Assembly: GCF_056712565.1 (NCBI RefSeq)
Contig: NZ_CM160072.1
Direction: 5' to 3' (one strand)
DNA length: 64,000 bases
Shown in pieces: positions 46,134 to 63,107 of this stretch (position 1 is its first letter; every line of letters begins with the position of its first letter). A program made the translations under genes and the position numbers. The notes under the pieces were generated by a model, which had not been told where the DNA came from, searched no databases, and saw nothing but the letters and a program-made list of their open reading frames with translations.

Positions 46134-46172
46134 TGAGTATTAACGAGTCATTGTAAATTGCAGTACGATAAT

Positions 46173-46199
46173 GGCTTCCAGTACTGGAAGCCATTTTGC
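46173..46199 (+). terminator. probable metE terminator
   Basis: Perfect 20-nt palindrome ggcttccagtactggaagcc followed by attttgc. Confidence 0.5.
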
Positions 46200-46301
46200 A
46201 TGAGTGCCAGATTGAAGCAGATCTTCAGGAGTAGAAATAACCGAATCGTTTTTTTCGCAAAACACAGTTTTGAGTGATTCCGTTCAGTAATCAACGCTAC
46301 G

Positions 46302-46562
46302 TTATTTATTCTCACGTTGCACGAGATTGTATCCCTTTTCACTAACGTGGTAGTGAGGCATAGACTTATGCCCGCTATCCTCAATAATAACCAAACCTTC
46401 GTTAGCTAATTTGTTAACAATATTAACAACATTACCGAATCCTGGTATTTGCCTTATGGATAGTGTGCGATCGAGATTCATCCAGTTCCAGTTTATATCT
46501 TTCTCAGTCATAACGTTCAGCACGTTAAGTTCATTTTTAGTGATCACGATATTCTGTACCAA
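46302..46562 (-). CDS. small protein, candidate orphan immunity protein (paralog 2)
   Basis: 86 aa; high identity to the adjacent 85 aa protein by eye; AT-rich. Confidence 0.5.
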   Translation of the reverse strand: MVQNIVITKNELNVLNVMTEKDINWNWMNLDRTLSIRQIPGFGNVVNIVNKLANEGLVIIEDSGHKSMPHYHVSEKGYNLVQRENK

Positions 46563-46621
46563 AATTGATGAGTATCTTATTGAAAGATCACAATGTAAAT
46601 CATGCTCCTGTAATGGCTGGA

Positions 46622-46879
46622 TCAGAAGAGGTTGTCTTGTTGTTCTTTGATAAGATTCAATCCATATTGAGAAACTCTGTAGCGTGGTTTAGAGTTGCCC
46701 TCACCATTTACGATATCAACCAACCCATGATTAACCAGCTTTGTTACGATATTCGCTACGTTGCCAAATTCTGGAATATTTCGTATAGCTAAAGTACGAT
46801 CCAGCACCATCCAGCTCCAGTCAATATCTTTCTCAGCCATAACTTTCAGCACGTTAAATTCAACTATCGTAATCGTCAT
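46622..46879 (-). CDS. small protein, candidate cognate immunity protein (paralog 1)
   Basis: 85 aa; start overlaps the stop of the upstream toxin-domain ORF by 4 nt. Confidence 0.5.
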   Translation of the reverse strand: MTITIVEFNVLKVMAEKDIDWSWMVLDRTLAIRNIPEFGNVANIVTKLVNHGLVDIVNGEGNSKPRYRVSQYGLNLIKEQQDNLF

Positions 46880-48054
46880 TTTTTTGCATCCGGATGAAAT
46901 AAGTCAGTATCTTTAATTTTAAAGTCTTCTAGAGTTGCAGTATGTGCATTATTCCATAATTCATATCCATCTAAACCATTCGGTTCACCTGTTTCCCATC
47001 CTAAATTACAATAACGCTGATACTCGCGGCATTCATGAGTATAGTAGTTCAGATCGTATTTTTCAGGAAGCAATTCTTTATTTGCTATTTTTTTTAGCCT
47101 TGAAATCATTACATCATTAGCTGGATCATGATCAAATCTGGAGATATGCTTTTCAACAATAGCGATACCTTCCCTATTGATTGTTACGCCATCTATCGTC
47201 AGGTTTTCTATTGGACCACCGGCAAGGTCGGGATTAAATGGTCTTCCTGATACTGCTCCTCTGGCTCCGAAATGCTCAAATGATTCCAAATCAGGGAATC
47301 TCATTCTTCCCAGAACAACTCCAGCAACTATTGAAGCACCAGCGATGAGTAACCCTTTGTTATCCATAACTTGATCGTAACCAGCAGGTGCATCTCCTCC
47401 CAACTTGTTTGCTGTTTCCCTGAATCCTTCGATATTCCCATTGTATATGCCGCCAGCAGCAAGCAGTCTGCCAACCGCTTTACTATTGAGTGTTTTGAGG
47501 CCATTATTATCTTTAGTTTTTTGCCGTGGTATAAACAGACGGTTGTAGTTATCGGGAAATGCCAAATGACTAAATTCAGTATTAGCAATCAGATGCCTGG
47601 AGAGTATATATTCATAACTGACAGTGATGGTTTCTGTATCCAGATTGTTCTCAGTAAACAGGTGATTGATTGCTGATAAGAGCGCGCCGCGGAGTTGAAT
47701 GTTGTAATATTTCTCCTATCGACCAAATCTATTGATCCGATAGAAGTCAAACTCCATGAACAACTGCTCGTTATTGTTAATAGCGTTAATAAGTAACGGG
47801 GAGCTTTTGTCAATCAACTTACAGAAACTAAGGCCATGTAATTGTGACCCTTTGCCTGTATTCGTAATACTATTAGATAGCGAGAACGCGAAGATTTCAT
47901 CTTCATGGCCAATCTGCCAGCGATTACCTATTGATGCGCTCGTTCCGCAACGAGAGGAAATACATCCTTGTTGTTCTCCGGTTATGGTCAGGTAAATTTC
48001 ATCACTCATCTTTGATGAACTCTCTTTATTGCTTGATGTTTTAAAAATAAACAA
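46876..48054 (-). pseudogene. Hcp (T6SS tube protein) fused to a C-terminal extension domain, interrupted by in-frame TAG at 47716..47718
   Basis: N-terminal ORF matches Hcp (YLTITGEQQG..., LSFCKLIDKSSP); the frame continues past one TAG through the rest of the Hcp fold into the 229 aa domain; likely true start MSDEIYL at 48009. Confidence 0.6.
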
Positions 48055-48493
48055 TATTGCTATTTGTTTATAATTATTTACTCCTCAAGTTAATGGATTT
48101 AAATATGGGAAATAAAATGTTTCACTTTAGACCAGTTTTCATGAGGAAAATCTGTAATCATTAATAATAAACATGAATATTTTGCAGTGATTAATATTTG
48201 TTATGAATATAATCTATAACAATGAAGAGTTATCAGTTGTTCGGTGTATAGCCAGAGACGAGTTCAGTTTGTGATTTTTACAGGGCAGTTACAGCCGCAA
48301 AATTTTATGGCTGATTTCACCTTCCCCTCAAGCTTATCTTTCTTAAAAAGAGAAATAATTCTTAAATTCAAATAGTTATATACAATCTACTCTCTTTCTT
48401 GTGACTAGCTTCACATTTCATACTGATGCATTGGAATGAAATAAAATTTCATGAGATTTTGTGTTTGAGAAAAATTATTTCATTAGGTGTGAA

Positions 48494-49051
48494 ATGGACG
48501 CAAAGCTGTACATCACTGAGATCATCAATGAATTAACCTTCGTTAAGGACTCTATCCGTGAGGATGACTGCACCAAATTGATCGACGCTATTCAGCAAAG
48601 CCAGCGCGTTTTCTGCTATGGCCTGGGGCGTGCCGGCTTTTCCATGAAAGCCTTCACCATGCGCCTGATGCATATGGGCAAAGAGGTTTACTTCCTGACG
48701 GAAACCATTACGCCGAACTTTGGGCCTGGCGATCTGTTTATCGTTTCTTCCGCTTCCGGTGAGACAGCACAACTGGTGGCACTGGCGAAAAAAGCACGTC
48801 AGTTTGGCGGCGCTGTGGCGGTGTTAACCACGAATCGACACGCCACTATCACCGAGTTTGTCGACGTCATCGTGCAAATCAATGCCCCTTCCAAAAATCA
48901 AAAAGATTCTGTTTTCCGCTCGGCACAGCCGATGGCGTCGTTGTATGAGCAAGCTTTGCTGGTGATTGCCGATGCATTAGTGATGAAGATGGCTGCTGAA
49001 AGCGGTGCGCCGGAAAGTGAACTGTTTAAGCGCCACGCCAATCTGGAATAG
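48494..49051 (+). CDS. SIS-domain protein (6-phospho-3-hexuloisomerase-like sugar-phosphate isomerase)
   Basis: About 185 aa from ATG at 48494 preceded by AGGTG; SIS phosphosugar-binding pattern. Confidence 0.55.
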   Translation: MDAKLYITEIINELTFVKDSIREDDCTKLIDAIQQSQRVFCYGLGRAGFSMKAFTMRLMHMGKEVYFLTETITPNFGPGDLFIVSSASGETAQLVALAKKARQFGGAVAVLTTNRHATITEFVDVIVQINAPSKNQKDSVFRSAQPMASLYEQALLVIADALVMKMAAESGAPESELFKRHANLE

Positions 49052-49092
49052 TCGTCGCCGTTATTTGCTCGATACCCTACAGGAGAATAAAA

Positions 49093-50601
49093 ATGAGCAA
49101 AAAAATAACATCCTTGTTTAACTTCAAGAAGTTGCAGAAATTTTCTTCTGCTCTGATGTTACCAATCGCCATTCTTCCGGCGGCGGGTTTGATTTTAGCC
49201 ATCGGGATTTCATTTAACATTGAGCTGCTGGCGAATTGCGGCGGCCTGATTTTCGCCAACCTTCCTTTGCTGTTTTGTGTCGGTATTGTGATTGGCCTGA
49301 CAGGTGATGGTTCTTCATCACTTTCAGCGATTATCAGCTACATGATCATGAATGCCACGATGGGAACGCAACTTGGCATTACCGCGGAGTCCGTTGCAGC
49401 CAGTAACGGTGACTATGCGATGATCCTCGGGGTACCGACGTTACAAACGGGAGTGTTTGGCGGTTTGATTGTCGCCATCTTTGTTTATCTGCTCTATACC
49501 CGCTTCCACAATATTGAATTGCCTCAGTTTCTTGGTTTCTTCGGTGGAAAACGCTTTGTACCGATTATTACGGCGGTGGCGGCAATTATTGTCGGCTATT
49601 TATTGCCGTGGCTGTGGATACCGGTACAAAAAGGTCTGGCGTCGCTTTCAACGCTGGTGACCAGTGGGCATAACGCGAACTTCGCGGCCTTTATTTACGC
49701 CGTTGGCGAACGTTCGCTGATTCCTTTTGGCCTGCATCATATCTGGAACGTGCCGTTTTATTACAACTTTGGCGACTACATGACCAAATCCGGGCAACTG
49801 GTGACGGGCGATATTCCGGTGTTCTTTGCCCAATTGCGCGACGGTGTTCCGTTGACGGCGGGGTTGTTTATGACAGGTCGTTTCCCAATCATGATGTTTG
49901 CGTTACCTGCCGCCGCGTTGGCGATGTATCAGGAAGCAAAACCGGAACGTAAGGCGCTGATTAAAGGCCTTTTACTCTCCGGTGCGCTGACCACATTTGT
50001 TACCGGGATTACGGAGCCGCTGGAATATGCATTTTTGTTTGCAGCTCCGGTTCTCTACATCATTCACATCTTCTTATATGCCACTTCATTTGTGCTGATG
50101 AACATCCTGAATGTGCACATTGGTCATCCTTTTGCTGGCGGTCTTATTGATTTCGTACTGAATGGCGTTATGCCAAACCGCACGCCGTGGTATCTGGTGT
50201 TCCTGGCAGGCGCGGGCTATGCAGCGATTTACTACACCGTATTTCGGGTACTGATCCGCAAGTTGAATCTGAAAACACCGGGACGTGAGGATGAAGAGAT
50301 TGCCGTTGCAACCACATTAACGCGCGAAGAACGTCCATACCAAATCATCGAGGCAGTAGGTGGTTTCGACAATATCGAAGATGTGGATGCCTGCGCAACA
50401 CGCCTGAGGCTGGCGCTGGTAGACGATAAGAAAGTGAATGAAAAACGGCTGAAGGAGTTGGGGGCTGCGGGTTTAGTGAAACTGGGTGATGGCGGTGTAC
50501 AGGTGATATTTGGCGGCAAATCGCAAATCCTGCGCGACGAAATCAAAACCGTAATGAGCAGACCGCGCCCGACAGAAATGACAGTGGCCTGTGCTAACTA
50601 A
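49093..50601 (+). CDS. PTS glucose-family EIICB component
   Basis: 502 aa; polytopic EIIC followed by C-terminal EIIB with CATRLR phosphorylation motif; AGGAG 7 nt upstream. Confidence 0.75.
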   Translation: MSKKITSLFNFKKLQKFSSALMLPIAILPAAGLILAIGISFNIELLANCGGLIFANLPLLFCVGIVIGLTGDGSSSLSAIISYMIMNATMGTQLGITAESVAASNGDYAMILGVPTLQTGVFGGLIVAIFVYLLYTRFHNIELPQFLGFFGGKRFVPIITAVAAIIVGYLLPWLWIPVQKGLASLSTLVTSGHNANFAAFIYAVGERSLIPFGLHHIWNVPFYYNFGDYMTKSGQLVTGDIPVFFAQLRDGVPLTAGLFMTGRFPIMMFALPAAALAMYQEAKPERKALIKGLLLSGALTTFVTGITEPLEYAFLFAAPVLYIIHIFLYATSFVLMNILNVHIGHPFAGGLIDFVLNGVMPNRTPWYLVFLAGAGYAAIYYTVFRVLIRKLNLKTPGREDEEIAVATTLTREERPYQIIEAVGGFDNIEDVDACATRLRLALVDDKKVNEKRLKELGAAGLVKLGDGGVQVIFGGKSQILRDEIKTVMSRPRPTEMTVACAN

Positions 50602-50651
50602 TTCGAGATTAGCGGGCTGGTTTCAGCCCGCCAGACAGAGAGAGCTGAAGT

Positions 50652-52649
50652 ATGAATTCACAATTACTGGCTAACGCCATCCGAATGTTAAGTGTTGATG
50701 CGATCCAGAAAGCGAACTCCGGTCATCCGGGCGCGCCGATGGGGATGGCGGATATTGCCGAAGTGGTCTGGCGTCGTCACCTGCGTCATAACCCAAAAAA
50801 TCCGCAGTGGTTTAACCGCGACCGCTATATTCAGTCGAACGGGCACGGTTCCATGTTGATTTACGCTTTGCTGCATCTTACAGGCTACGACCTGTCGATG
50901 GATGATATTCGCGACTTTCGTCAGCTCCACTCCCGCACGCCAGGTCATCCAGAATATGGTTATACGCCGGGTGTTGAAACCACCACCGGCCCGTTGGGGC
51001 AGGGCGTAGCTAATGCGGTGGGGATGGCGATTGCGGAGAAGGCGCTGGCGGCAGAATTTAACAAACCGGGCTTTAATATTGTTGATCATCACACATGGCT
51101 ATTTTTGGGTGATGGCTGCCTGATGGAAGGGATCTCCCACGAGGCCTGTGGTCTTGCAGGAACGCTGAAGCTCGGCAATCTGATTGCTATCTGGGACGAT
51201 AACGGTATTTCGATCGATGGTCACGTAGAAGGCTGGTTTGCTGAAGATACGGCTGCCCGTTTTCGTGCCTACGGCTGGCATGTCATTGAAGGCGTTGATG
51301 GTCACGATCCAGAAGAGGTAGATGCTGCGGTGCGTGAAGCGAAAAGCGTCACGGATAAGCCCAGTCTGCTGTGCTGCAAAACGATTATCGGTTTTGGTTC
51401 GCCAAATAAAGCCAACAGCCACGATTGCCACGGCTCGGCGCTGGGTGCAGATGAAGTGGCGCTGGTGCGTGAACGTCTGCAATGGCCGTATGCCCCTTTC
51501 GAAATTCCTGGTGAAATTTATGCCGCATGGGATGCGACCGAGAAAGGCGCGCAGGTTCAACAGGAATGGGATGCACTGTTTGCTGACTACGCGAAGCAGT
51601 GGCCGGAACTGGCGGCGGAGTTTACTCGTCGCATGAAGGGTGATTTGCCTGCTGGCTGGGCCGAGAATATGCAGAAATATGTGCACGATCTGCAATCCCA
51701 TCCGGCGGCGCTGGCAACCCGTCAGGTCAGCCAGAAATGCCTCAATCACTTCGCGGATATGCTGCCGGAACTGATGGGCGGCTCGGCGGACTTGTCGCCC
51801 TCTAACCTGACTCGCCATCAGAAATCGGTTGATTTCACCGGGGAAAATCCGGCGGGGAATTACATCTCCTATGGCGTGCGTGAATTTGGTATGTCGGCCA
51901 TCATGAACGGTCTTGCGCTGCATGGTGGGTTTATCCCTTACGGCGGTACTTTCCTGATGTTTATGGAATATGCGCGTAATGCACTGCGCATGGCGGCGCT
52001 GATGAAGATCCGCTCGGTGTTTGTTTATACCCACGATACCATCGGCCTGGGCGAAGACGGCCCGACACATCAGCCCGTTGAGCAACTGGCGTCGCTGCGT
52101 CTGACGCCGAATATGGAAACCTGGCGCGGTTGCGATCAGGTGGAAGTGGCGGTAGCCTGGCAACAGGCGATTGAGCGCAAAGATGGCCCAACGTCGTTGG
52201 TATTAACGCGCCAACCTCTGGCGCAACAGCCGCGCACCGCTGCACAGTTGGCAGAGATTGCGCGTGGTGGTTATGTACTGAGTGATTGTGACGGTCAGCC
52301 TGAGATGATCCTCATTTCTGCGGGTTCAGAGATTGAGTTAGTGGTCAGCGCCGCAAAAGCGTTAACGGAAGAAGGGCGTAAAGTTCGCGTGGTTTCCATG
52401 CCGTGTACCGAGCGTTTCGATAATCAGGATGCGGCGTACAAAGAGTCGGTATTGCCAAAAGCTGTACGCAAACGTCTGGCGGTAGAAGCCAGCATCGCCG
52501 GATTCTGGGAACGCTACGTCGGCCTGGACGGTAAAGTGATCGGCATGACGAGCTTTGGTGAGTCTGCTCCGGCGAATGTGTTGTTCAAACACTTTGGTTT
52601 TACGCCGGAAAATGTCCTGGCGCAGGCGCGTGAGCTACTGAACAGCTAA
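50652..52649 (+). CDS. transketolase paralog
   Basis: 665 aa; collinear with TktA by eye ([29 protein letters not shown], ThDP-binding regions). Confidence 0.85.
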
Positions 52650-52678
52650 ACCTGCACAAGGGGTGAAAGGATGACCTT

Positions 52679-53524
52679 TTACCCCTTGAAACGGGAGCCA
52701 AGAAACTCTTCACGGGTGCGGTATTTCTCGTAATGCGCCTTGTTTTTATACATAAACAACAGCACCAGCATATCAATAACGCCCATTGCCGGAACGCGAG
52801 TGGAGTCGAAGGCTTCAAAGAAGATTTTATCGCTGACCGCGGTATTGAGTTGATGGGTGGAGAGTTTTGATAACGGAGATTTAATATAGTTAGTGATACA
52901 AACGGATTTGGCACCGCGCTCTTTCACCACTTTAAAGATATCGACCATTAAGTTGGTGCTGCCAGAGTTAGAAATACCAATCGCCAGGTCACGTTTCCCC
53001 ATAGAATATGCCGCATTAATTTGCATTTCCGGGCTGACGTGAACAACGGTTTTTAATCCGAGTTGGCTGAATTTATAAGCACCATAAACGGCCAGAGGGT
53101 TTGAATTTCCGGCAGCAAAAAAGAAAATAGTGTCGCAATTAGCAAGTAGTTTGAGAATGGACTCAAGCACTTCGGCATTAAAAAATTGCGTTGATTGTAT
53201 TAAATCTTCGGCCTGTTTTTTTAATAAAAATGTGGCCAGCGACGTTATATCGGTAAAATCGGTATTATCAGGATAGCTATTGTCAGGATTAATGACTTCT
53301 TTTGCTAATGCAATTTTTAAATGGTAATAACCCTGATAACCTAATTTCTTACAGGTGCGTACGATAGTCGCTTCACTGGCATGGCTTTTTTCTGATAGTT
53401 CAGTGACACTATAGTTCACGACTTCATGTGCGTGGCTAAGAATATAGTCAGCGACCTTTTTTTCCGCCTGATGCAGTGTAGGGTAATTGCTTTGAATCAG
53501 ACTTTTTACGGTTATGTTATTCAT
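52679..53524 (-). CDS. RpiR/MurR-family transcriptional regulator (HTH plus SIS domain)
   Basis: 281 aa; N-terminal HTH, C-terminal SIS; convergent with the PTS-SIS-transketolase genes. Confidence 0.7.
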   Translation of the reverse strand: MNNITVKSLIQSNYPTLHQAEKKVADYILSHAHEVVNYSVTELSEKSHASEATIVRTCKKLGYQGYYHLKIALAKEVINPDNSYPDNTDFTDITSLATFLLKKQAEDLIQSTQFFNAEVLESILKLLANCDTIFFFAAGNSNPLAVYGAYKFSQLGLKTVVHVSPEMQINAAYSMGKRDLAIGISNSGSTNLMVDIFKVVKERGAKSVCITNYIKSPLSKLSTHQLNTAVSDKIFFEAFDSTRVPAMGVIDMLVLLFMYKNKAHYEKYRTREEFLGSRFKG

Positions 53525-53724
53525 AATTAGTAAATTTCATTCTGACAGAAAGTGCTGATTATAACATAGTTTTCAGGCGTGGATAGGTGTGAAAAAAATG
53601 AAGGTGTGCAGTGAACGTAATGATTAACAGACCGGTTAATTTTCATGAATTACGTCAACTGCACAAAAATAATTTAAACGGGTGCTCTAATTAAAGCAAA
53701 ACTTATATTTTTATCATTGTATTG

Positions 53725-54630
53725 TCAATTAAATACAAATTGTGTCATTAATTGTGGGTTTCTTAAATATTCTATGCACCACTGACAGGCTTTGCCCATA
53801 CCATCGGAACGAGCGGCAAGAAATAACTTGGTGGCGTGTTTATGTTCGCGCATTGGCTTTTTAAGCAATTTACCGCTGTTCAATAACGGCAATGCCAGAT
53901 GATGTGGAATATAACCAATACCGACGTTTTGTTCTATTAAGGCGATTGCCGTAGCGAAGTCAGGAACAAAAATGGGTTTTTGTCCTTCCAACAACCAGGC
54001 TTGCATCGGGGGGAAGTTAACGGAGGTATCGCGGATACAAATCGCTGGATAGTGACGCAATTCACTGTTTTCTAATGGATGCCGCTTCGCTGCCAGTGGG
54101 TGGAGTGGGCTGACGACAAAATCCCATTCCATTTGTCCGACCGGTTCGCTAATGATGCCTTCACTGCTTGGTACTGCATGAGGAGCACCGTAGACCAGAT
54201 CAGCACGCTTACTGTACAGCGCATCCCAGCAGCCGTTGTATACCTCAAGATCTACCGTCAGTGTTGTTGATGTGAATTGCCGTTCAAAATCTCGAATAAA
54301 TGCCACCAGCAAATCACCAGGAATAATATTGTTCACCGCAATTGTCAGTTCACGCTCAATACCATCGTGAATCAGCACTGTGTTGCGCTTTAATGCTTCC
54401 AGGTCGCCAAGAATAGTTTTGCTATGTTCGATGAAGTAACTTCCCGCTGGCGATAATTCAATATAGCGTCCCTTACGAATGAACAGTTCAACGCCCAGGC
54501 TCTCTTCCGCTTTCTTGATGGTGTAACTGATGGCGGAAGGGACTTTATTTAACTGCTCGGCTGCGGTGGTAATGCTCTGGTGTCTGGCGACCAGATGAAT
54601 AACACGAAGCGTTTCGTCTGAGATGAACAT
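53725..54630 (-). CDS. LysR-family transcriptional regulator
   Basis: 301 aa; N-terminal LysR-type HTH. Confidence 0.75.
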   Translation of the reverse strand: MFISDETLRVIHLVARHQSITTAAEQLNKVPSAISYTIKKAEESLGVELFIRKGRYIELSPAGSYFIEHSKTILGDLEALKRNTVLIHDGIERELTIAVNNIIPGDLLVAFIRDFERQFTSTTLTVDLEVYNGCWDALYSKRADLVYGAPHAVPSSEGIISEPVGQMEWDFVVSPLHPLAAKRHPLENSELRHYPAICIRDTSVNFPPMQAWLLEGQKPIFVPDFATAIALIEQNVGIGYIPHHLALPLLNSGKLLKKPMREHKHATKLFLAARSDGMGKACQWCIEYLRNPQLMTQFVFN

Positions 54631-54707
54631 AAGGCTCCCTGGTCAGTGGTAAAGTGGCTGAATCTCTCCAGATTCAGCCGTAATCATTGCCTGAGTATAC
54701 CCAGGAA

Positions 54708-55931
54708 TTAGCGGTGTTGACTTGCCCGACTGAGAATCGCATACGCGATACATGCCACCAGAATCGAGTCTACCGAAGGGATCGTCGTCAGGGTGAATAA
54801 GCCTTTTACGGTCATAAAGCCAACCGCTGCGCCTATGATCCATGCTGCGAATGTCAGCACTTTAATCTGTGACTCCTGGGCTAACACTGACTCTTGATAG
54901 CCATTACGGCGATAAAGGAAAAAGTCAGCGATATAAATTCCGGCAACGGGTGGCGTGGCGATACCCAGGAACAGCAGAAACGGAATAAACCACGCCATAA
55001 TATCCATACTGCCTACGATGGCGGAAAGGATACCCAGCGCCACGGTAATCTGCCATTTGGGAAAGCGGGTAAGCAGTGTGGAAACCACCAGCGTGCCCTG
55101 GAACATATTGCCCGCGTTACCGGTGACGCAGGCGAAAATCAACAACAGCGCCGCAGGCAGAACCGCACCGAATACCGCCATCGCACCCAGTAAAGATCCC
55201 TGACCACTAATGGCGCTCGGCGTTGCACCCGCCCAGTAGAGCAGAGGGTAGGCAACCAGAAACGTCACGCCTGCGGCAATCAGCGCATGTTTGCGGTTAT
55301 GCACAAAACTACCGAAATCAGGCAGTGTGGCAACCAGCACAATAATGGTGCCAACAACGGTGGAAACGGCGACACCTGTATTCATCTCCACAATCGCCGC
55401 TGGTACTGCCACTTCGGTATGGGTTGCCACATAGAGGATGTAACACAGCACCAGCGCGATAACCGGCACGGCAACCTGGGCAATTTTTCCCAGAACGGCA
55501 AAGCCAAATGCCGTAGAGGCGACAAAAATGACACAGCCAGCCGCCACTAACAGTGCCAGTGGAACTTCCAGTCCATGTTGAGCCAGTAAGTCATGTACCG
55601 AATGACCAAACATATTGGCGGTAACGGCAATCCAGCCGAACAGACTTATCGCCATCAAAATGTTAATGGCGATGGCCCCTTTTTCGCCAAACGAATATTT
55701 CACAATGCCATACGTTGGCAGGCGGGCTTTTTCTCCCACGCTAATGGTGATGGCTGAAAGTAAGGTCAGAATGACGCCGCCTAACAATACGACGCTAATT
55801 AAACTGCCGCTGGAAAGTTGATTGCCGAGGCTTGAGGATGACAACAGCACAGGTGTGACGGCAATACCCAGCAAAATCATGGCAATACGCAATCCTGATG
55901 CCGTATTCAGATTCTCTTCTTTTTTACGCAT
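54708..55931 (-). CDS. NCS1-family nucleobase permease (CodB-like)
   Basis: 407 aa, about 12 TM; resembles cytosine permease CodB around GIYIADFFLYRRNG. Confidence 0.65.
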   Translation of the reverse strand: MRKKEENLNTASGLRIAMILLGIAVTPVLLSSSSLGNQLSSGSLISVVLLGGVILTLLSAITISVGEKARLPTYGIVKYSFGEKGAIAINILMAISLFGWIAVTANMFGHSVHDLLAQHGLEVPLALLVAAGCVIFVASTAFGFAVLGKIAQVAVPVIALVLCYILYVATHTEVAVPAAIVEMNTGVAVSTVVGTIIVLVATLPDFGSFVHNRKHALIAAGVTFLVAYPLLYWAGATPSAISGQGSLLGAMAVFGAVLPAALLLIFACVTGNAGNMFQGTLVVSTLLTRFPKWQITVALGILSAIVGSMDIMAWFIPFLLFLGIATPPVAGIYIADFFLYRRNGYQESVLAQESQIKVLTFAAWIIGAAVGFMTVKGLFTLTTIPSVDSILVACIAYAILSRASQHR

Positions 55932-55956
55932 AGTATGTTCCCTTTATAAATGCGCG

Positions 55957-56346
55957 TTACACAGTATGAAAATGCCCGGTGTATTTGCGCCAGCTACCCA
56001 GTTCTGTAATTTCCCGTTGGCCTTCGGTCAGCCAGTTTTCTGCCAGTACGCCCAGCACTTCGCTACCATCGGCAAGTTTGATTTTGCCAATTGCCAGCCC
56101 AGCGGGTTCGCTCATTAACAGAGCGGCAAAACTGGCCAGCGGTAATTGCCAAATTTCTACGTCGACGTGTGTTCCTCCTTCATTCACGCGAATCATTCCC
56201 GGATGGCGATCATTAATACTCCACAACCGGTAATGGGCGTCAGTTCGGTCTTCACGGACAAAAATACCGCCCGCTTTTTGCATATTTGGGTTGAGTTCCA
56301 GGCCGCGCATCAGCGTTCCGTTAACGGCTAAAAGCGTTGTAGTCAT
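55957..56346 (-). CDS. gamma-glutamylcyclotransferase-like (AIG2 / allophanate hydrolase C-terminal domain-like) protein
   Basis: 129 aa; LAVNGTLMRG N-terminal motif typical of GGCT-fold proteins. Confidence 0.5.
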   Translation of the reverse strand: MTTTLLAVNGTLMRGLELNPNMQKAGGIFVREDRTDAHYRLWSINDRHPGMIRVNEGGTHVDVEIWQLPLASFAALLMSEPAGLAIGKIKLADGSEVLGVLAENWLTEGQREITELGSWRKYTGHFHTV

Positions 56347-56362
56347 TGTGTTCTCCAGAGAA

Positions 56363-57319
56363 TTAAAGGGTTATCCATGTACCGCTCTGATGCGCCAGGG
56401 CTGCTTTTATGGTTTGCGGTGAAGTAATCAGGCCGCTGGCCTGTTTGCCTTGTTGCTGGCTGGCATTGATGAAATCAACAATGGCTTCCACTTTGGGTTG
56501 CATACTGCCGACACCAAACTGACCTTCCCGCAACAGCGTTTGCGCTTCGGCAACGCTGATAGCGTCGAGCCACTGTTGTTGTGGTGTACCAAAGTTAATC
56601 GCTACTTTTTCTACACCGGTGGGGATCACCAGCAGATCTGCGCCTAACTGACTGGCGAGCAGCGCGGAGGCCAGATCTTTATCGATCACGGCTTCTACAC
56701 CTTTCAGTTGTTGCCCGTCTCGCACCACCGGAATACCGCCGCCGCCGCAGGCAATAACCAGATATCCCTGGCGCACCAGGTGAGCGATGGTGTCGTGCTC
56801 AATAATTTCCAGTGGTGCAGGAGAGGGAACTGTACGCCGCCAACCACGCCCGGCGTCCTCCATCAGCGTCCAGCCGAGTTGTTGTTGGCGTTGTTGGGCC
56901 GTTGCTTCATCGAGAAACGCGCCAATTGGTTTACTGGGGCTGGCGAAAGCATCGTCATGTGGGCTGACTCGCGTTTGTGTCACCAGGGCAATTACCGGTT
57001 TGTTTATGCCACGGCGAGCCAATTCGTTATGCAGCGCTTTCTGGAACATGTAGCCAATTGCACCTTGTGTATCACCCACGGCGTAATCAAGTGGAACCGG
57101 AGAAACTTCGTTACTGGCGAGTTCAGAGCGGCGCAGAATAAAGCCCACCTGCGGGCCATTACCGTGGGTTAGTACCAGGTCCCATCCGGCTTCAACCATA
57201 TCAACGATATGTTGCACGCTTTCCATCACTGCAACATATTGATCGGGAATACTATTGCGTTGCTCGTCCTGAATGAGCGCATTGCCGCCAACCGCGACGA
57301 CAGCCAGTGGCTTAACCAT
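56363..57319 (-). CDS. carbamate kinase
   Basis: Start at MVKPLAVVAVGGNAL (318 aa), overlapping the upstream stop; carbamate kinase family pattern. Confidence 0.75.
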   Translation of the reverse strand: MVKPLAVVAVGGNALIQDEQRNSIPDQYVAVMESVQHIVDMVEAGWDLVLTHGNGPQVGFILRRSELASNEVSPVPLDYAVGDTQGAIGYMFQKALHNELARRGINKPVIALVTQTRVSPHDDAFASPSKPIGAFLDEATAQQRQQQLGWTLMEDAGRGWRRTVPSPAPLEIIEHDTIAHLVRQGYLVIACGGGGIPVVRDGQQLKGVEAVIDKDLASALLASQLGADLLVIPTGVEKVAINFGTPQQQWLDAISVAEAQTLLREGQFGVGSMQPKVEAIVDFINASQQQGKQASGLITSPQTIKAALAHQSGTWITL

Positions 57320-58736
57320 GATGGTTCTCCTTTGCGACGATCTCCGCCAGTGCACGTACAGCGGCGACAAAACAGGCCATCGGCGCAGTGGTGATCCCGG
57401 CACCAATTTGCCCGACCCCCGCTTGTTTGTGGGCGATACCCGTATTGATGACCGGTAAAATGCCGCGATCGGTCACTTTACGCGCATCAATTCCTGCTGC
57501 GGTGGGGGCAAAATTGAGGGCTGGAAGTGTAAATGCGGGGTTACCGCCGAGGGTGATGGCTTGCATCCGACGGCTGTTATTGGTGGCATCGGCAGGGGTG
57601 CCTCCCACAAATTTGACGATCGCCGGAGACGACGCCATCGCGAAGCCACCCATACCTGCGGTTTCAGTAATTGCGCTATCACCCAGGTCAGCAGCAGCGT
57701 CGTCAACGCCAAATCCGGGGAAGAACAGACCTTCAACGGCATTGGCAGGAGCCTGGAACCAGCGATCGCTAGTACCGGAAAGCCGAATACCAAAACTCAC
57801 CCCGTTACGCGCCATCACCGTAACCATTGAACTGAACGGTACATTGGCGGCGGCATCCATCATTGCTTTACAGGCGGCCATCGACAGATTGAGGAAGAAG
57901 TGATCGTTACCGGTGATAAATGCCACGACGCGCTGGATATGTTCCTGTGGAAGAGAGCAGGCCAGCAATGCCGGGAGCAGGCGCTTAATCAGCAAACCGG
58001 TAGCGGCAGCATTGCGGTTATGAACTTCATCCCCCATATGCAGCGCCTGCGCCATTAATGGCTTGAGTTCCAGCTCGCCGTGTTGTGCGATTGCTGCTTT
58101 CATTGCCGGCGCCAGTTCATCGCGCATCCAGGCCAGACGATTGAGAACTTCATCGTTATTGGCGCCAAAACGGAGAACCTTACCCAGACCTTCATTGAAA
58201 TTGCTAAAAGTACGATGGCCGTTGGTTTTGTTTTCTACCACCCATAACGGCATCGACGGGCTGATGATGCCTGCCATTGGGCCAACCGCGTGATAATGAT
58301 GACAAGGGGCAAGGTCGATTTCGCCTGCGTTTATTTGGTTTTCAGCGTCTTGCTGGCTGGTGGCCCAACCTTCGTACAGCATGGCACCAATAATCGCCCC
58401 TTTTACCGGACCACACATCTCTTCCCAGGCAATCGGCGGGCCAGAGTGCAAAATACGTTTTTGTTCAGCCATTGCTGGAATGGCCTCTTTAGCGAGCATG
58501 ACATCCACCAGCATGGGCTGTGCTTCGAGATAACGTGTCATGGCGATTTGGTTGGCATTTTCTACCAGGGGATGACGTAGCAACGATGCCAGATCCAATC
58601 CAGCGTCAATATCGCCTTGTGCTGGTGGCTGCCAGTTGAGTGCAATTGCGCTTCCCCCGGCATGTTGAATATTGTCAGCAAAACTGTGTAGTCCCGCGTT
58701 CACAACCTTCAAAGGCTGATTAAATAAGGTATTCAT
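57312..58736 (-). CDS. DUF1116-family protein (YlbE-like)
   Basis: 474 aa; start immediately follows the FdrA-like stop; assignment mainly from size and operon context. Confidence 0.5.
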   Translation of the reverse strand: MNTLFNQPLKVVNAGLHSFADNIQHAGGSAIALNWQPPAQGDIDAGLDLASLLRHPLVENANQIAMTRYLEAQPMLVDVMLAKEAIPAMAEQKRILHSGPPIAWEEMCGPVKGAIIGAMLYEGWATSQQDAENQINAGEIDLAPCHHYHAVGPMAGIISPSMPLWVVENKTNGHRTFSNFNEGLGKVLRFGANNDEVLNRLAWMRDELAPAMKAAIAQHGELELKPLMAQALHMGDEVHNRNAAATGLLIKRLLPALLACSLPQEHIQRVVAFITGNDHFFLNLSMAACKAMMDAAANVPFSSMVTVMARNGVSFGIRLSGTSDRWFQAPANAVEGLFFPGFGVDDAAADLGDSAITETAGMGGFAMASSPAIVKFVGGTPADATNNSRRMQAITLGGNPAFTLPALNFAPTAAGIDARKVTDRGILPVINTGIAHKQAGVGQIGAGITTAPMACFVAAVRALAEIVAKENHHG

Positions 58737-60292
58737 GCGTTTAGCCCCTTTTTCTGCAACTGAGTCTGTGCAACGGTGCTGGCCCATAGCGCCGCCTGTG
58801 CATTGCTGCTGGCGATGATGACCCCTGCATTTTGTAGTGCTCTTATCTGCTGACTGCGTATTTGCGGATCAGCTTCCGTTCCGCAAACGTGCGCAATCAG
58901 CAACGGTGCGTTATTCATGTCGATGTGTGAAAGTTGGTCCAGTAATTCGCTGGCAGGCGCCGTGGAAGCGCCATAACCAAGTACCAGGTCGAATAACACG
59001 ACGGCAGTGTGTGAGTCGTTGAGTTCGTTGAGCAGACGTTGATTGCGCAGAGTCGGGTCGATCATTGGATGCGGTTTGCCACGGGTGAAATCATCGTCGC
59101 CCATATCGATCAACGTGTGATCTTCGCTTTGCCAGATATTTGCCAGAGCACGATTACCCGCAACTGGCGTATTGGAAGCTGCGCTGAATCCCTTTTGTTG
59201 GCAGATAAGTTGCGCTTCGTAGCAGAAGGTTCCTCCGGCGAAAACACCGCGTATCGCCTGGCGATGGGCTGGCAGGCGCTGACAGGCGTTTTGTAACATT
59301 GTGAGATCGGCGCAGGAAATCTCGGTCTCGACAGCCGGAAGTGGCTGAGCATTCAGTAACGCTACGGCGATATTTGCGGCGCTGGCAAGTGTGGTGGCCG
59401 CGGTGATATTGGGACGTGCCAGATCATGCGGATTCGCACCGAGGAAATTCACCACCACGGGTTTTCCACAAGCCTCGGCGCGCTCCAGAATAGTCTGGGC
59501 AACGATCGGTGAAGGCGGTTTTGAAATCAGCACAATCACGCGAGTTTCATCGTCTTGCGCCAGCGCATCTAAAGCGAAGAGCATCGATATTCCACCAATC
59601 TCTTCACTGAGATCATGCCCACCGGTTCCCAACGCCTGAGAAATACCCGCTCCGAGCTGGTCGATTCGGCAAGTCACTTCCTGTAGCCCGGTGCCTGACG
59701 CGCCAATAACACCAATTGCTCCGCGTTTCACCACATTAGCGAAGCCTAACGGAATGCCGTTAACAATGGCGGTTCCACAGTCAGGTCCCATTACGATGCG
59801 CTGACGTTCTCGGGCAAGCGTTTTGATAGATTTTTCCTGCCCGATACTGACGTTATCGCTGAACATCATCACGTTCATTCCGAGGTTTAACGCTTTAATT
59901 GCTTCGGCGGCGGCGTAGTCTCCCGGTACAGAAATGAGTGCCAGGTTGGCTTCGGGTTCGGCTTCCAGTGCCATTTCCAGGCTGACCTTTTCCGGTGTTT
60001 TAATGCCACTATCCGTTTCATCATCGGGTTTGCTGGTCAGACGTTGCTGGGCCAGTACCAGTGCTTCATTGCAAATATCTTCTTCACCCATGACTGCAAT
60101 CACTAAATCATTGGGACTGGCGTTGATTTCGTTACCCAGACCCGCATCGCGCAATTGTTCGAGATTATTGGGCGTTCCCATGACGACCGAGGCCTGTTGA
60201 ATACCGGGCAACTTGCTGATTTGCGCGGAAATCTGCATCAGAGAAACTGAGTCCTGATAAAGATTACTGAAAACTTTATATTTAACTTTCAT
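58733..60292 (-). CDS. FdrA-family protein (succinyl-CoA synthetase alpha-like fold)
   Basis: 519 aa; blocks YQDSVSLM, MMFSDNV, MGPDCGT, GVIGASGTG, PHPMIDPTLRNQ match E. coli FdrA. Confidence 0.75.
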   Translation of the reverse strand: MKVKYKVFSNLYQDSVSLMQISAQISKLPGIQQASVVMGTPNNLEQLRDAGLGNEINASPNDLVIAVMGEEDICNEALVLAQQRLTSKPDDETDSGIKTPEKVSLEMALEAEPEANLALISVPGDYAAAEAIKALNLGMNVMMFSDNVSIGQEKSIKTLARERQRIVMGPDCGTAIVNGIPLGFANVVKRGAIGVIGASGTGLQEVTCRIDQLGAGISQALGTGGHDLSEEIGGISMLFALDALAQDDETRVIVLISKPPSPIVAQTILERAEACGKPVVVNFLGANPHDLARPNITAATTLASAANIAVALLNAQPLPAVETEISCADLTMLQNACQRLPAHRQAIRGVFAGGTFCYEAQLICQQKGFSAASNTPVAGNRALANIWQSEDHTLIDMGDDDFTRGKPHPMIDPTLRNQRLLNELNDSHTAVVLFDLVLGYGASTAPASELLDQLSHIDMNNAPLLIAHVCGTEADPQIRSQQIRALQNAGVIIASSNAQAALWASTVAQTQLQKKGLNA

Positions 60293-60386
60293 GCTGTTAC
60301 GCCTGTTTCATTCCGCCCGATAGCAAAATTCGGGCAAAGCATCCCCGTGTAGCCCCATAAACGGGCTACGGGAGAAAAGGTTGAAA

Positions 60387-61247
60387 TCAATTCATGGTGT
60401 TCAGGGTTCGAAAGCCATGCAGCATTCCTGCAAGGCAATCTACTCCTGACGTTGCGCCAAATTGCATGACCTGTTCTGCACAGGATGCGATTGTCATTGC
60501 CGATGCGCTCCCAACCAGTTGTGCGAGTAACTGGCAAATCGGTTCTGAAAAATGTCCCTGAAGCGCACGCTCCAGATAATGACGACTGATATCCGTGGTG
60601 TTGTGCGCATGTTGATCAATTGCCTGCTGCAACCGGTATTGATGATCGGCAAGTGGTGCAGGGAGTTGCCATAACCAGAGCGCTGCCAGATAGCCCAACA
60701 AATAGTCATCTCCATCGGGCGTTAAGCCTTTACCAAAGCCGATCAGTTGTGGCACCTGGCGTTCCAGCGCATCTGGATGCTCCATAATTGCTAATCCCTG
60801 GTGCGTGAGACTATCCGGCAGGTGCAATGTGCTTTGAACGTTATGTTCCAGACAAAATAAAAGCCGTTGCGATGCCATCGTTGGGTAGTGCTGGAAAACC
60901 AAAGGGAATGCCTCAAGTGTCAGCATTCTCCCCACAAATGGCGACTGCCAGAGCGTTGCGTTTTCGAGCGCCACACAAAATCGAGGTGTCCGCAGTAAGC
61001 CTTGGGTTAACTGAATGGGATCTGAATGGGCAATCTCTCTTCGCCAGTCCCAACATTCAGGTAGCCAGACTCTGGCAGCATCAGGGAGATTCAGATACGT
61101 TTGCGCACACAACAGAGTGATGAATGTTCCCGCGTCTGAATACAGATTTACCGCATGTTTAAAAGCGCTATGTAGACGTAAATCTTGCGTTTCATTCTGC
61201 GGGAAAAGATATCCCAACGACGATGCGCAAAGCGTAACCTGTACCAT
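60387..61247 (-). CDS. hypothetical protein, possibly DUF2877 (YlbF-like)
   Basis: 286 aa; assignment inferred from position beside FdrA-like and DUF1116-like genes, not from a recognised motif. Confidence 0.4.
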   Translation of the reverse strand: MVQVTLCASSLGYLFPQNETQDLRLHSAFKHAVNLYSDAGTFITLLCAQTYLNLPDAARVWLPECWDWRREIAHSDPIQLTQGLLRTPRFCVALENATLWQSPFVGRMLTLEAFPLVFQHYPTMASQRLLFCLEHNVQSTLHLPDSLTHQGLAIMEHPDALERQVPQLIGFGKGLTPDGDDYLLGYLAALWLWQLPAPLADHQYRLQQAIDQHAHNTTDISRHYLERALQGHFSEPICQLLAQLVGSASAMTIASCAEQVMQFGATSGVDCLAGMLHGFRTLNTMN

Positions 61248-61252
61248 CGGCG

Positions 61253-61921
61253 TTAGCCTTCCAGACCTGCAATAATGGCTTTGGAATCAGTAACCCAACC
61301 GAAAATGGCACCTTGTGCTTTGATCATCTCGAGGGCGTATTTCTGGAATTCCGGGAAATAGGAGCCGACACAATCTTCCGGGATAATGCATTCATAGCCA
61401 CGATCATTTGCTTCGCGCACGGTGGTGGTTACGCAAACTTCGGTTGTTACACCACAAACTATCAGCGTCTTGATACCGTGGTTTTGCAAAATCAGATGTA
61501 AGTCGGTTTGATAAAACGCGCCTTTGCCAGGCTTATCAATCACCGGTTCGCCTGCCACCGGGTACAGTTCAGGAATGATGTCATGACCTGCTTCACCTCT
61601 GACCAGAATGCGTCCCATCGGTCCTGGTTCACCAATAAAGGTTTTTCCGCCGCGCGTCAGTTTGGCTGGCGGGCAGTCGCTTAAGTCTGCACGATGGCCT
61701 TCACGAGTATGAATAACCATAATTCCTTTTTGACGTGCGGCTGCCAGCACCTCTGTACATGGTGCGATAGCCGTGCGTACCAGTGAAACATCATTGCCCA
61801 GAGCCTCACCGAAGCCCCCTGCTTCGACAAAGTCACGCTGCATGTCGATCATGACCAGTGCAGTTGTGCGCGGATCAAAAGGTAATTCAAAGGGTTGAGC
61901 CTGAAAAATGGATTGCGTCAT
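61253..61921 (-). CDS. isochorismatase-family cysteine hydrolase (RutB/biuret hydrolase-like amidohydrolase)
   Basis: 222 aa; VMIDMQRDF start and VCGVTTEVCV catalytic-Cys region typical of the family; first gene of the operon. Confidence 0.7.
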   Translation of the reverse strand: MTQSIFQAQPFELPFDPRTTALVMIDMQRDFVEAGGFGEALGNDVSLVRTAIAPCTEVLAAARQKGIMVIHTREGHRADLSDCPPAKLTRGGKTFIGEPGPMGRILVRGEAGHDIIPELYPVAGEPVIDKPGKGAFYQTDLHLILQNHGIKTLIVCGVTTEVCVTTTVREANDRGYECIIPEDCVGSYFPEFQKYALEMIKAQGAIFGWVTDSKAIIAGLEG

Positions 61922-62177
61922 GGTAAATCTCCTGTCTGATGTTTAAACGATCCAGTTGTTCTGAGAACGAGTATTCAGGAGAAAAGCGACACAAAACAGG
62001 AAAAAAGTTTGCCGCACAGCAACGAAATTTTTGCATTCAGCAGGTGGTGTGATGACGAATGTGAAGGGAGTCAAAGAGTGGCATACAGCAACAAATTTTT
62101 TGATGCTGTATGGTTTTGAGATTAAAAAAATCGTTGAAATTGTGTGAGCTTAATCATCAGATTTAGCGACTATGGCG

Positions 62178-62987: not shown

Positions 62988-63107
62988 GGTATTCTCCGTA
63001 CCCTTATAAAAATGTTGCGCAATGTTAACTATAGTCAGCATGCAACAAATCACATTGCCTGAATCGGCTCATCTTTTATGCAGTCCTGCAGAATGAAGAG
63101 TGATTTA

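Follow-up and report, generated by a model that had tools for sequence, protein, structure and literature searches.

The DNA analysed here is a stretch of 64,000 nucleotides from contig NZ_CM160072.1 of the NCBI RefSeq assembly GCF_056712565.1, hereafter termed the window, and the element under study is the segment located in it between the genes metE and ysgA. In a K-12-type genome (locus L002), metE and ysgA are convergent and lie 39 bp apart, whereas in the window the end of metE (46133) and the end of ysgA (62178) are separated by 16,044 bp, as expected from an earlier sequence-only reading that had placed an accessory island of ~16 kb, absent from K-12, at this site. A 20-kb query (44000–64000) matches the chromosome of Escherichia coli ATCC 11775 (NZ_CP033092.2) at 100%. 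A BLAST comparison of the K-12-type locus with the window indicated that K-12-type homology ends on the left at 46129, in the region of the metE stop codon, and restarts at ~62180–62189, within the last codons of ysgA. The annotation by the Prokaryotic Genome Annotation Pipeline (PGAP) contains 16 features between the two genes.

The tract is the published tkt1 genomic island of B2 and extraintestinal pathogenic E. coli (ExPEC); it is already known and does not constitute a discovery. In avian pathogenic E. coli (APEC) O1, it was described as a 16-kb island lying as an insert between metE and ysgA, with a G+C content of 48.57% and 15 open reading frames (ORFs), including tkt1, a phosphotransferase system (PTS) IIBC gene, a carbamate kinase-like gene, a permease gene and regulators, and direct repeats and mobility genes were already reported to be lacking (Li et al., 2012, BMC Microbiol 12:51, PMC3349570). 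In APEC BEN2908, the region was designated GR29 (metE to ysgA), and its uncharacterized ORFs were assigned homologies to CodB, YqeA, YahG, FdrA and RutB (BEN2908 paper, PLoS One 2026); for cassettes 1 and 2 as defined below, BEN2908 and one strain of APEC O1:K1:H7 are 100% identical to the window. The island serves as a marker of ExPEC and B2 strains and tkt1 is cited as virulence-associated, and most of the island genes are still listed without a function. The present analysis adds a dissection of the island into three cassettes with exact junctions, their frequencies in 5,426 genomes, plasmid-borne copies, the ancestral state of the site, a duplication of the ysgA end in a two-cassette form, evidence for an insertion hotspot, a functional prediction for cassette 3 and, in cassette 1, a putative toxin domain of an unannotated family fused to Hcp. 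The genes and features of the locus are as follows.

43872–46133, + strand: metE, the left core flank (PGAP; 96.6% identity to K-12-type metE)
46134–46237, no strand: left junction segment of 104 bp, with a hairpin at 46171–46194 followed by a T-run
46302–46562 (46302–46547 in PGAP), − strand: small ORF of 86 amino acids, putative immunity protein 2, a paralogue of the next ORF
46622–46879, − strand: small ORF of 85 amino acids, putative immunity protein 1, overlapping the end of tssD by 4 nucleotides
46876–48009, − strand: tssD/Hcp-ET pseudogene ("internal stop" in PGAP), with an Hcp domain and a C-terminal extension of 228 amino acids
48203–48377, no strand: spacer between cassettes 1 and 2, specific to the full configuration (pairwise BLAST)
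48494–49051, + strand: hxlB-like SIS-domain sugar-phosphate isomerase gene (TIGR03127, 204.9 bits; cut-off 160)
49093–50601, + strand: glucose-family PTS EIIBC gene, with no EIIA domain (TIGR02002, 608.6; cut-off 591.8)
50652–52649, + strand: tkt1, a third transketolase paralogue (TIGR00232, 1008 bits)
52679–53524, − strand: MurR/RpiR-family regulator gene, GC 0.41 (PGAP, NCBIfam)
53725–54630, − strand: LysR-family regulator gene, PunR/AllS-like, the last gene of cassette 3 (NF008294 PunR 288.6 and AllS 214 bits, both under the cut-offs)
54708–55931, − strand: NCS1-family permease gene (cytosine/hydantoin/allantoin) (PGAP; Pfam Transp_cyt_pur in orthologues)
55957–56346, − strand: gene for a stand-alone homologue, 129 amino acids long, of the allophanate hydrolase C-terminal domain (AH_C) (NCBIfam; Pfam PF21986 in orthologues)
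56363–57319, − strand: carbamate kinase gene (TIGR00746, 366 bits; cut-off 358; 49% identity to YahI, 39% to AllK/YbcF)
57312–58736, − strand: gene for an AllG/YlbE/YahG-like DUF1116 subunit (46–48% to YahG and AllG; Pfam PF06545 in orthologues)
58733–60292, − strand: gene for an AllF/FdrA/YahF-like subunit (NF004760, 499 bits; cut-off 433; 40–42% to FdrA and YahF)
60387–61247, − strand: gene for an AllH/YlbF/YahE-like DUF2877 subunit (PGAP; 26–33% to YahE and YlbF; Pfam PF11392 in orthologues)
61253–61921, − strand: gene for an isochorismatase-family cysteine hydrolase of TrtA type, the first gene of the operon (58.7% to TrtA 6XIX)
62083–62111, no strand: inverted repeat ATACAGCA-N13-TGCTGTAT in the 256-bp region upstream of the operon (read from the sequence)
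62178–62987, − strand: ysgA, the right core flank (PGAP)

The base composition of the island is uneven, in agreement with the sequence-only reading, which had described an AT-rich left part and catabolic genes near the GC content of the host. The GC content is 0.378 for cassette 1 (46134–48202), with a profile of 0.29–0.42 at 46.2–48.5 kb, 0.49 for cassette 2, 0.512 for cassette 3, 0.486 for the island and 0.51 for the window. The regulator gene rpiR (0.41) is the exception in cassettes 2 and 3, and it belongs to a second AT-rich trough (52.7–54.0 kb, GC 0.34–0.42) that extends from rpiR across the intergenic region into the end of the LysR gene and coincides with the junction of cassettes 2 and 3 at 53746. 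Also as stated in that reading, no integrase, transposase or insertion sequence (IS) is present in the PGAP annotation of the island, and no tRNA gene adjoins it, the closest ones identified by ARAGORN being located at 9.1–9.5 kb, 36 kb away. A search for direct and inverted repeats over the island returned short chance matches and none at its ends, no Rfam family was matched at 43–64 kb with the gathering thresholds, and promoter and terminator scans gave counts not above those of shuffled controls and were not used.

To the right of the window (>64000; L001:21049–22001 and L098:15301–18444), udp is followed in island-bearing strains by genes of a tripartite tricarboxylate transporter (TctA/TctB/Bug family) and by a 2-dehydro-3-deoxy-6-phosphogalactonate aldolase gene, at the place occupied by rmuC in K-12; this small udp-rmuC "islet" was already mentioned by Li et al. 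(2012; PMC3349570).

Cassette configurations and junctions

Partial coverages of the block of 100, 89, 62, 30 and 20% were observed across genomes, and one example of each was fetched. Pairwise BLAST delimited three cassettes, which occur in five configurations.

Cassette 1: 46134–48202
Cassette 2: ~48378–53745
Cassette 3: 53746–62190
Configuration A: empty (L002)
Configuration B: putative Hcp-toxin gene and small ORFs only (L004, with an intact tssD of 377 amino acids; L007, a second allele)
Configuration C: fdrA-type cassette (cassette 3) only (L005; E. coli B, L098)
Configuration D: tkt cassette and fdrA-type cassette (cassettes 2 and 3), no Hcp (L006)
Configuration E: all three cassettes (this window)

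The left junction segment (46134–46237) stands in place of the K-12-type metE/ysgA terminator, differs from the intergenic sequence of K-12/E. albertii type and is common to the Hcp-only, cassette-3-only and full configurations. Homology with the Hcp-only locus stops at 48202, and homology with the cassette-2+3 locus begins at 48378. Cassette 3 keeps the same two ends (53746 and 62190) in the window, in cassette-3-only chromosomes, where the junction is 46237|53747, and in a 189-kb plasmid (L003), in which IS remnants surround it. Both of these ends lie in the last codons of genes, one in its own LysR gene, within which the junction with cassette 2 (53746|53747) falls, and the other in ysgA, of which positions 62178–62190 (the last four codons and the stop, ...GVKK-stop) are cassette-3 DNA; the homology with the plasmid ends at 62190. 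Because cassette ends fall in the last codons of ysgA, the C-terminus of YsgA varies with the configuration, reading ...GGKKSL-stop in K-12, ...GGKRN-stop in configuration B and ...GVKK-stop wherever cassette 3 is present.

Frequencies were determined in 5,426 complete E. coli genomes at a coverage of at least 80% of each query. Cassette 3 was found in 1,554 genomes (~29%), in 1,502 chromosomal and 129 plasmid places, cassette 2 in 1,133 (21%), the cassette 1 region in 727 and the N-terminal part of the Hcp gene in 846; 455 of the cassette-1 matches reach an identity of 99% or more, a level consistent with configuration E. A share of 80% or more of the whole block is present in 1,132 genomes (21%), and the block is absent from K-12, which accords with accessory DNA and not with a block carried by most E. 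coli genomes including K-12. No segment of the island was found in multiple copies in E. coli genomes (median, one place per genome). Configuration counts of ~455 for E, ~680 for D, ~370 for C, ~390 for B and ~3,500 for empty or other sites were estimated from the summary tables rather than by typing each genome.

Cassette 3 was also identified on 82 PLSDB plasmids, all predicted to be conjugative, of which 78 are from E. coli and four from Klebsiella; ColV-type IncF plasmids are among the carriers, one example being pEC598 (IncFIB/IncFIC). The plasmid copies are ~94.5% identical to the window and the chromosomal copies at least 99% identical to each other, and the plasmids were rejected as the immediate source of the chromosomal cassette, since their copies represent a separate allele.

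It is highly probable that the island arose by the stacking of three self-contained cassettes in the gap between the convergent metE and ysgA terminators, and is not one mobile element; this degree of confidence applies to the explanation as a whole, which comprises the known island, the stacked cassettes, the hotspot and the spread, with less confidence in the function of cassette 3. The mosaic origin suggested by the sequence-only reading thus takes the form of three cassettes in five combinations across genomes, each with its own junctions. Because the cassettes are separable, the virulence associations of the island need to be tested for each of them. PCR detection of tkt1 reports cassette 2 only (21% of genomes), whereas cassette 3 is present in 29% and is also plasmid-borne.

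Predicted functions of the cassettes

The eight genes of cassette 3 are co-directional, and several of them have overlapping stop and start codons. The AllF-, AllG- and AllH-like proteins and the kinase are 26–49% identical to the products of allFGHK and yahEFG-yahI of K-12. Orthologues of the hydrolase are 80–88% identical across gamma- and betaproteobacteria. The eight genes are clustered in an unchanged order in Caballeronia and Silvimonas terrae, and they are also present in Vibrio metschnikovii (L010:8466–20663), with the kinase and regulator genes repositioned; the Pfam families AllF_N, AllG and AllH were found in the orthologous cassettes. Because the same eight genes recur in unrelated flanks with a GC content like that of the host (0.40–0.65 in Caballeronia, Silvimonas and Vibrio), cassette 3 is regarded as an old functional unit rather than an accidental grouping of genes. 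In V. metschnikovii, the carbamate kinase is of a different type (35% identity) and is encoded after the permease, the LysR gene is located upstream, and a phage-type integrase gene lies ~2.4–3 kb from the cassette. The inverted repeat at 62083–62111 is a plausible candidate for a LysR-type operator, and a similar half-site, AAAAATTTCGTTGCTGT, is found ~60 bp downstream of it. Among laboratory strains, cassette 3 is carried by E. coli B (L098 4988–13175), by BL21(DE3), as judged by the cassette-3-only junction, and by Nissle 1917.

The first enzyme of the operon has TrtA of Herbaspirillum (6XIX) as its best match in the PDB (E 9e-80, 58.7% identity, 270 bits), compared with 237 bits for biuret hydrolases, BiuH 6AZO among them, and 105 bits for RutB; its score in the NCBIfam BiuH model NF050097 is under the cut-off (279.8 versus 370 bits). 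The TrtA study, in which a pathway of TrtA, TrtB, BiuH and AtzF was described in Herbaspirillum sp. BH-1, names the catalytic and discriminator residues and reports an activity ~10^4-fold lower on biuret than on triuret (Tassoulas et al., 2020). Alignment to 6XIX indicated that the D24/K129/C162 triad of TrtA, as well as K132, F29 and Q202, are all conserved in the cassette-3 hydrolase, and that the six positions separating TrtA from BiuH (F35, N41, A134, E160, Y187 and I205), which are Y, Y, S, D, T and V in Rhizobium BiuH, are all of TrtA type. The AH_C protein is 100% identical to PDB entry 5C5Z, matches only positions 472–595 and 440–562 of the NCBIfam allophanate hydrolase models, and is matched by 4GYR and 4ISS through their C-domains; in allophanate hydrolase, the N and C domains catalyse sequential steps, the C-domain the second one. 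AllFGH has been shown biochemically to be an oxamic transcarbamylase that converts oxalurate and phosphate to oxamate and carbamoyl phosphate, and allFGH is co-transcribed with the gene for its partner, the catabolic carbamate kinase AllK (PMC11326118). An independent study reported that trtA/biuH is collocated with allFGHK in comammox Nitrospira and that biuH and allFGHK are also present in ammonia-oxidising archaea. Triuret has been reported in human urine as a product of urate oxidation.

Family membership and conserved gene order, on which the functional assignment is based, suggest that cassette 3 probably encodes the degradation of a ureide to carbamoyl phosphate and then the formation of ATP; that the operon is for triuret specifically is a more tentative proposal. 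In the proposed pathway, the NCS1 permease would take up a urate-derived polyureide, most likely triuret, and the TrtA-type enzyme would hydrolyse its terminal amide to carboxybiuret and ammonia. The AllFGH-like transcarbamylase would then split the N-carbamoyl bonds with phosphate, from carboxybiuret via allophanate to carbamate, each step of phosphorolysis freeing one carbamoyl phosphate, while the AH_C protein may act on an N-carboxy intermediate. Carbamate kinase would form ATP from the carbamoyl phosphate, with the operon under the predicted control of its LysR-type regulator. It is possible, although rather doubtful, that these enzymes constitute an undescribed energy-conserving polyureide route, in which a TrtA-type hydrolase is combined with an AllFGH-like transcarbamylase, a free-standing AH_C protein and ATP formation by carbamate kinase.

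In phenotype-array data, Nissle 1917 grew on Biolog biuret as a nitrogen source and K-12 did not; commercial biuret contains ~1 mol% triuret. The PM3 plate data of BL21(DE3) were unusable, as the negative control was scored positive, and a search of the available literature library returned no paper tying the E. coli cassette-3 operon to triuret. Several points weigh against the assignment. The contrast between Nissle and K-12 is correlative, being drawn from two strains with many gene differences. E. coli B REL606 was scored negative on Biolog biuret, which is weak evidence because the same run gave poor growth on ammonia. The hydrolase is no more than 58.7% identical to the characterised TrtA, and biuH, trtB and atzF are absent from cassette 3 and from its orthologues in Vibrio, Caballeronia and Silvimonas.

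An unlikely but possible alternative is that cassette 3 encodes a second oxalurate/allantoin-branch pathway or a Rut-type salvage pathway for pyrimidines or nucleobases, with the hydrolase acting on another amide, such as ureidoacrylate, oxamate or a different ureide. The NCS1 permease is of a nucleobase/hydantoin type, the regulator resembles the purine-related PunR and AllS, and the lack of biuH, atzF and trtB would be in keeping with such a role; furthermore, oxalurate/oxamate is the sole demonstrated substrate pair of AllFGH (PMC11326118), and the use of pyrimidine-derived nitrogen was proposed for GR29 from the similarity to RutB and CodB (BEN2908 paper, 2026). However, the hydrolase scores far higher against TrtA than against RutB and has every TrtA-specific discriminator residue, and neither a RutA-type monooxygenase nor a ring-opening amidohydrolase is encoded in the cassette. 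The three subunits are 33–48% identical to AllFGH and are encoded in the yahEFG order, and E. coli already possesses allFGHK for oxalurate.

If the triuret reading of cassette 3 is correct, ~29% of complete E. coli genomes, including those of most B2 ExPEC, Nissle 1917 and E. coli B/BL21, along with ColV plasmids, would obtain nitrogen as well as substrate-level ATP from a compound that has been reported to occur in human urine. It would give a function to an eight-gene operon that is widely conserved in beta- and gammaproteobacteria, and would extend the physiological role of the yah/all-type FdrA-DUF1116-DUF2877 enzymes beyond oxalurate. The prediction can be checked in common laboratory strains, because BL21 and Nissle have the cassette and K-12 does not; in addition, background activity from the cassette of BL21(DE3), in which recombinant TrtA was expressed (Tassoulas et al., 2020), may matter in assays of that enzyme.

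In cassette 2, the full-length identity between Tkt1 and K-12 TktA is 69%. The possibility that the EIIBC protein is the E. coli PtsG orthologue was rejected, its score in the PtsG model NF008301 (442.9) being under the cut-off of 647. The same four genes are found in the same order in Klebsiella pneumoniae, with 78–90% protein identity (80% for the hxlB-like orthologue); Serratia ficaria has the hxlB and PTS genes and no tkt, and in Enterococcus a SIS protein, a split transketolase, a PTS EIIBCA and an RpiR regulator are encoded together. Because K. pneumoniae and Enterococcus keep similar gene sets, the transketolase is considered an integral, conserved part of the unit. The neighbours of the hxlB-PTS unit in K. 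pneumoniae and S. ficaria (L093:13211–16558 and L094:647–7762) encode a GFO/IDH/MocA oxidoreductase and an AP_endonuc_2 (xylose-isomerase-like) protein, as well as an alpha/beta hydrolase and a MOFRL/DUF4147 protein, and they may hint at the sugar chemistry of cassette 2. In the pathway suggested by these gene families, the glucose-family EIIBC would import and phosphorylate a sugar, the HxlB-like isomerase would convert the sugar phosphate, and Tkt1 would feed the product into the pentose-phosphate pathway, with the cassette controlled by its own RpiR. This reading does not predict the reported properties of tkt1, which count against it: Tkt1 failed to complement tktA, and a tkt1 mutant was impaired with Pro-Ala and Phe-Ala as nitrogen sources (Li et al., 2012; PMC3349570).

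Cassette 1 has the architecture of an orphan type VI secretion system (T6SS) effector, in which an Hcp tube protein is fused to a C-terminal domain, the putative toxin, of an unannotated family. The models TIGR03344 and PF05638 cover only the N-terminal part of tssD (the first ~146 residues); for the C-terminal extension, no NCBIfam or Pfam match was obtained even at E<=10, nor any PDB sequence or fold match. A HMMER scan of 1.84 billion cluster representatives identified 545 relatives of the C-terminal part, whose last ~130 residues are found again at the very C-terminal end of proteins that range from 150 to 5,214 amino acids. An alignment of 26 members contains invariant H, D, H-E-x-x-E-x-x-R and W-x-x-x-H-x-x-x-x-E. 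Recurrence at protein C-termini is a typical hallmark of polymorphic-toxin domains and suggests a toxin role for the extension. The two small ORFs are ~77% identical in nucleotides and have no NCBIfam or Pfam match; from their position downstream of the putative Hcp-toxin gene, they probably have an immunity role. A likeness of the extension or the small ORFs to Fic/Doc helical proteins was rejected (probability very low, no Fic motif). Compared with the intact allele of 377 amino acids in L004, tssD has a single nonsense codon, W98*, at 47716–47718, and the gene is also intact in L007. A 76-mer containing this stop is exactly conserved in 256 of the 846 genomes that have the Hcp gene, and the putative toxin therefore appears to have been lost in one sub-lineage in which both putative immunity genes were kept. 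The stop codon disables the putative toxin in this strain, and at most the predicted immunity function therefore remains.

Ancestral state, insertion and spread

Configuration D preserves traces of the insertion site. Beside metE, it retains the K-12-type terminator and a remnant of 42 bp of the K-12-type ysgA 3′-end, which indicates that the site entered by the cassettes was of K-12 type and lay within the ysgA end. Its island is bracketed by an imperfect direct repeat of 24 bp, CAGCATACTGCGTAAACCATTCCA and CACCATACTGTGTAAACCATTCCA, with 22/24 positions matching. The absence of flanking direct repeats, which the sequence-only reading had reported, thus holds for the window and not for this commoner cassette-2+3 variant, in which the ysgA 3′-end is duplicated; no repeat is found in configuration E because the Hcp cassette replaced the left ysgA remnant. 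When the spacers at 48203–48377 of the window, 4701–4915 of L004 and 2706–2858 of L006 were aligned, no mutual homology was detected, and none of these configuration-specific spacers (E, B and D, respectively) matches the E. albertii intergenic region. No derivation of configuration E as a simple recombinant of B and D was therefore obtained.

The direct repeat of configuration D, together with the terminator and the ysgA remnant, resembles attL/attR, the incoming DNA gives ysgA a new 3′-end, as integrating elements often do, and a phage-type integrase gene lies near the Vibrio cassette. These features could be explained if the island were the decayed remnant of one integrase-driven element inserted once in the ysgA 3′-end, with the smaller configurations as deletion derivatives. 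Such a history is improbable, given that no gene or remnant of an integrase, excisionase or transposase was found in the E. coli configurations examined, that cassette 3 behaves as a unit of its own with identical ends on plasmids and in cassette-3-only chromosomes, that the spacers at the internal junctions are unrelated, that ~390 genomes have the Hcp cassette by itself, with two allelic forms of it known, and that the GC content differs sharply among the cassettes. The stack of separately acquired cassettes accommodates these observations; what tells against it is that the 24-bp duplication could mean that an integrase acted once, and that the configuration counts are estimates.

The ancestral state of the site was examined in one genome per species by a scan for YsgA relatives, which returned 80 loci. 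Most of them show synteny of udp, ysgA and metE, with a ysgA-metE gap of 40–250 bp, the genera including Escherichia (E. albertii), Citrobacter, Enterobacter, Pantoea, Erwinia, Serratia, Dickeya and Yersinia, among others. In E. albertii (L013:10808–11028), both the hairpin and the end of ysgA are of K-12 type; a REP/BIME-like (repetitive extragenic palindromic/bacterial interspersed mosaic) element of ~180 bp is inserted in the terminator hairpin. Because the adjacency is conserved in E. albertii and many other Enterobacterales, the empty metE/ysgA site is ancestral and the island was acquired, as the sequence-only reading had supposed. It is scarcely credible that the block dates back to the E. 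coli ancestor and was lost by deletion from K-12 and most other lineages, although B2 is often placed as an early-branching phylogroup and the block is at least 99% identical where present, since that proposal is already contradicted by the adjacency of ysgA and metE in E. albertii (with its K-12-type spacer and ysgA end) and dozens of Enterobacterales, by the K-12-type terminator and ysgA remnant in configuration D, which denote insertion into a K-12-type site, and by a divergence between phylogroups of 0.8% for cassette 3 compared with 1.6–2.1% for the flanks.

Neither cassette 2 nor cassette 3 was found at any of these 80 ysgA loci. In a further Escherichia lineage (L014), a putative Hcp-toxin cassette is present at the ysgA locus, and unrelated inserts of 1.5–7 kb, or >10 kb, occupy the metE/ysgA gap in several genera. 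That of Klebsiella oxytoca (L040:10808–17188) encodes a PTS EIIBC, a sulfatase, an anaerobic sulfatase maturase, a GntR regulator and a binding protein, and that of Kosakonia cowanii (L023:10805–14674) a three-gene ATP-binding cassette (ABC) transporter. The gap between the convergent metE and ysgA genes is a general hotspot of Enterobacterales for small cargo without mobility genes. In several genera, metE is not located within 10 kb of ysgA.

E. coli B and the K-12-type strain, which both belong to phylogroup A and are >99% identical genome-wide, diverge by 2.4% in metE, 3.8% in ysgA and 1.2% in udp. In identity to the window, E. coli B (metE 97.9%, ysgA 98.4%) exceeds K-12 (metE 96.6%, ysgA 96.9%), and its cassette 3 is 99.2% identical to that of the B2 window. 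Such values would be anticipated for a cassette transferred between lineages within a tract of homologous recombination that also covers the core genes on either side. The divergence of the flanks suggests that, within E. coli, the cassettes would spread as passengers when flanking metE and ysgA-udp recombine homologously, and cassette 3 additionally travels on conjugative IncF ColV-type plasmids.

Comparison with known systems

Measured against the Hacker–Kaper criteria for a classical genomic island, as quoted in PMC3349570, the window has no adjacent tRNA gene and no integrase, transposase or IS; flanking direct repeats are absent from the window and present in the cassette-2+3 variant (24 bp, 22/24); the deviant base composition of such islands is seen in cassette 1 (0.378) and rpiR (0.41), against 0.51 for the window. 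With respect to the tkt1 island of Li et al. (2012), the location, the length of 16 kb, the GC content of 48.6%, the ORF set and the link with B2/ExPEC strains all match, and there is no difference in sequence.

Cassette 2 contains a glucose-family EIIBC gene, a gene for a SIS-domain enzyme and a divergent RpiR-family regulator gene. In this respect it resembles murP-murQ-murR, which is a PTS-SIS-RpiR sugar module. It differs from that module and from the ribulose monophosphate (RuMP) pathway in having a dedicated full-length transketolase, and although its isomerase passes the TIGR03127 cut-off for HxlB of the RuMP pathway, no hxlA partner is present in the island or in the relatives from Klebsiella, Serratia and Enterococcus.

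The organization of cassette 1 is similar to that of the Hcp-ET effectors of E. coli, in which Hcp is fused to C-terminal toxins (Ma et al., 2017, as outlined in PMC6730261): an N-terminal Hcp domain and a C-terminal extension are followed by duplicated small genes in the immunity position. The domain of tssD is not of the HNH-DNase, DUF2235/Tle1, pyocin S3 or colicin DNase type described for these effectors, and in the window its reading frame is broken.

Cassette 3 shares with allFGHK and yahEFG-yahI the FdrA-like, DUF1116 and DUF2877 subunits beside a carbamate kinase, and its gene order is that of yahE-yahF-yahG-yahI. By analogy with allFGHK, the mechanism is expected to be alike, namely phosphorolysis of an N-carbamoyl compound to carbamoyl phosphate and subsequent formation of ATP. 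It differs from allFGHK in that the subunits are paralogues (33–48%), the order is of yah type and no all genes lie nearby; its subunit genes are joined to those for a TrtA-like hydrolase, an AH_C protein and an NCS1 permease, instead of to the allantoin genes of the all cluster or to YahJ. The triuret pathway of Herbaspirillum BH-1 resembles cassette 3 in its first enzyme, which is of TrtA type with all of the named residues kept. The two differ in their hosts, a plant/soil bacterium for the BH-1 pathway and animal-associated E. coli for cassette 3, and in the subsequent enzymes: cassette 3 is without BiuH, TrtB and AtzF, and its later steps would be phosphorolytic and ATP-yielding instead of hydrolytic.

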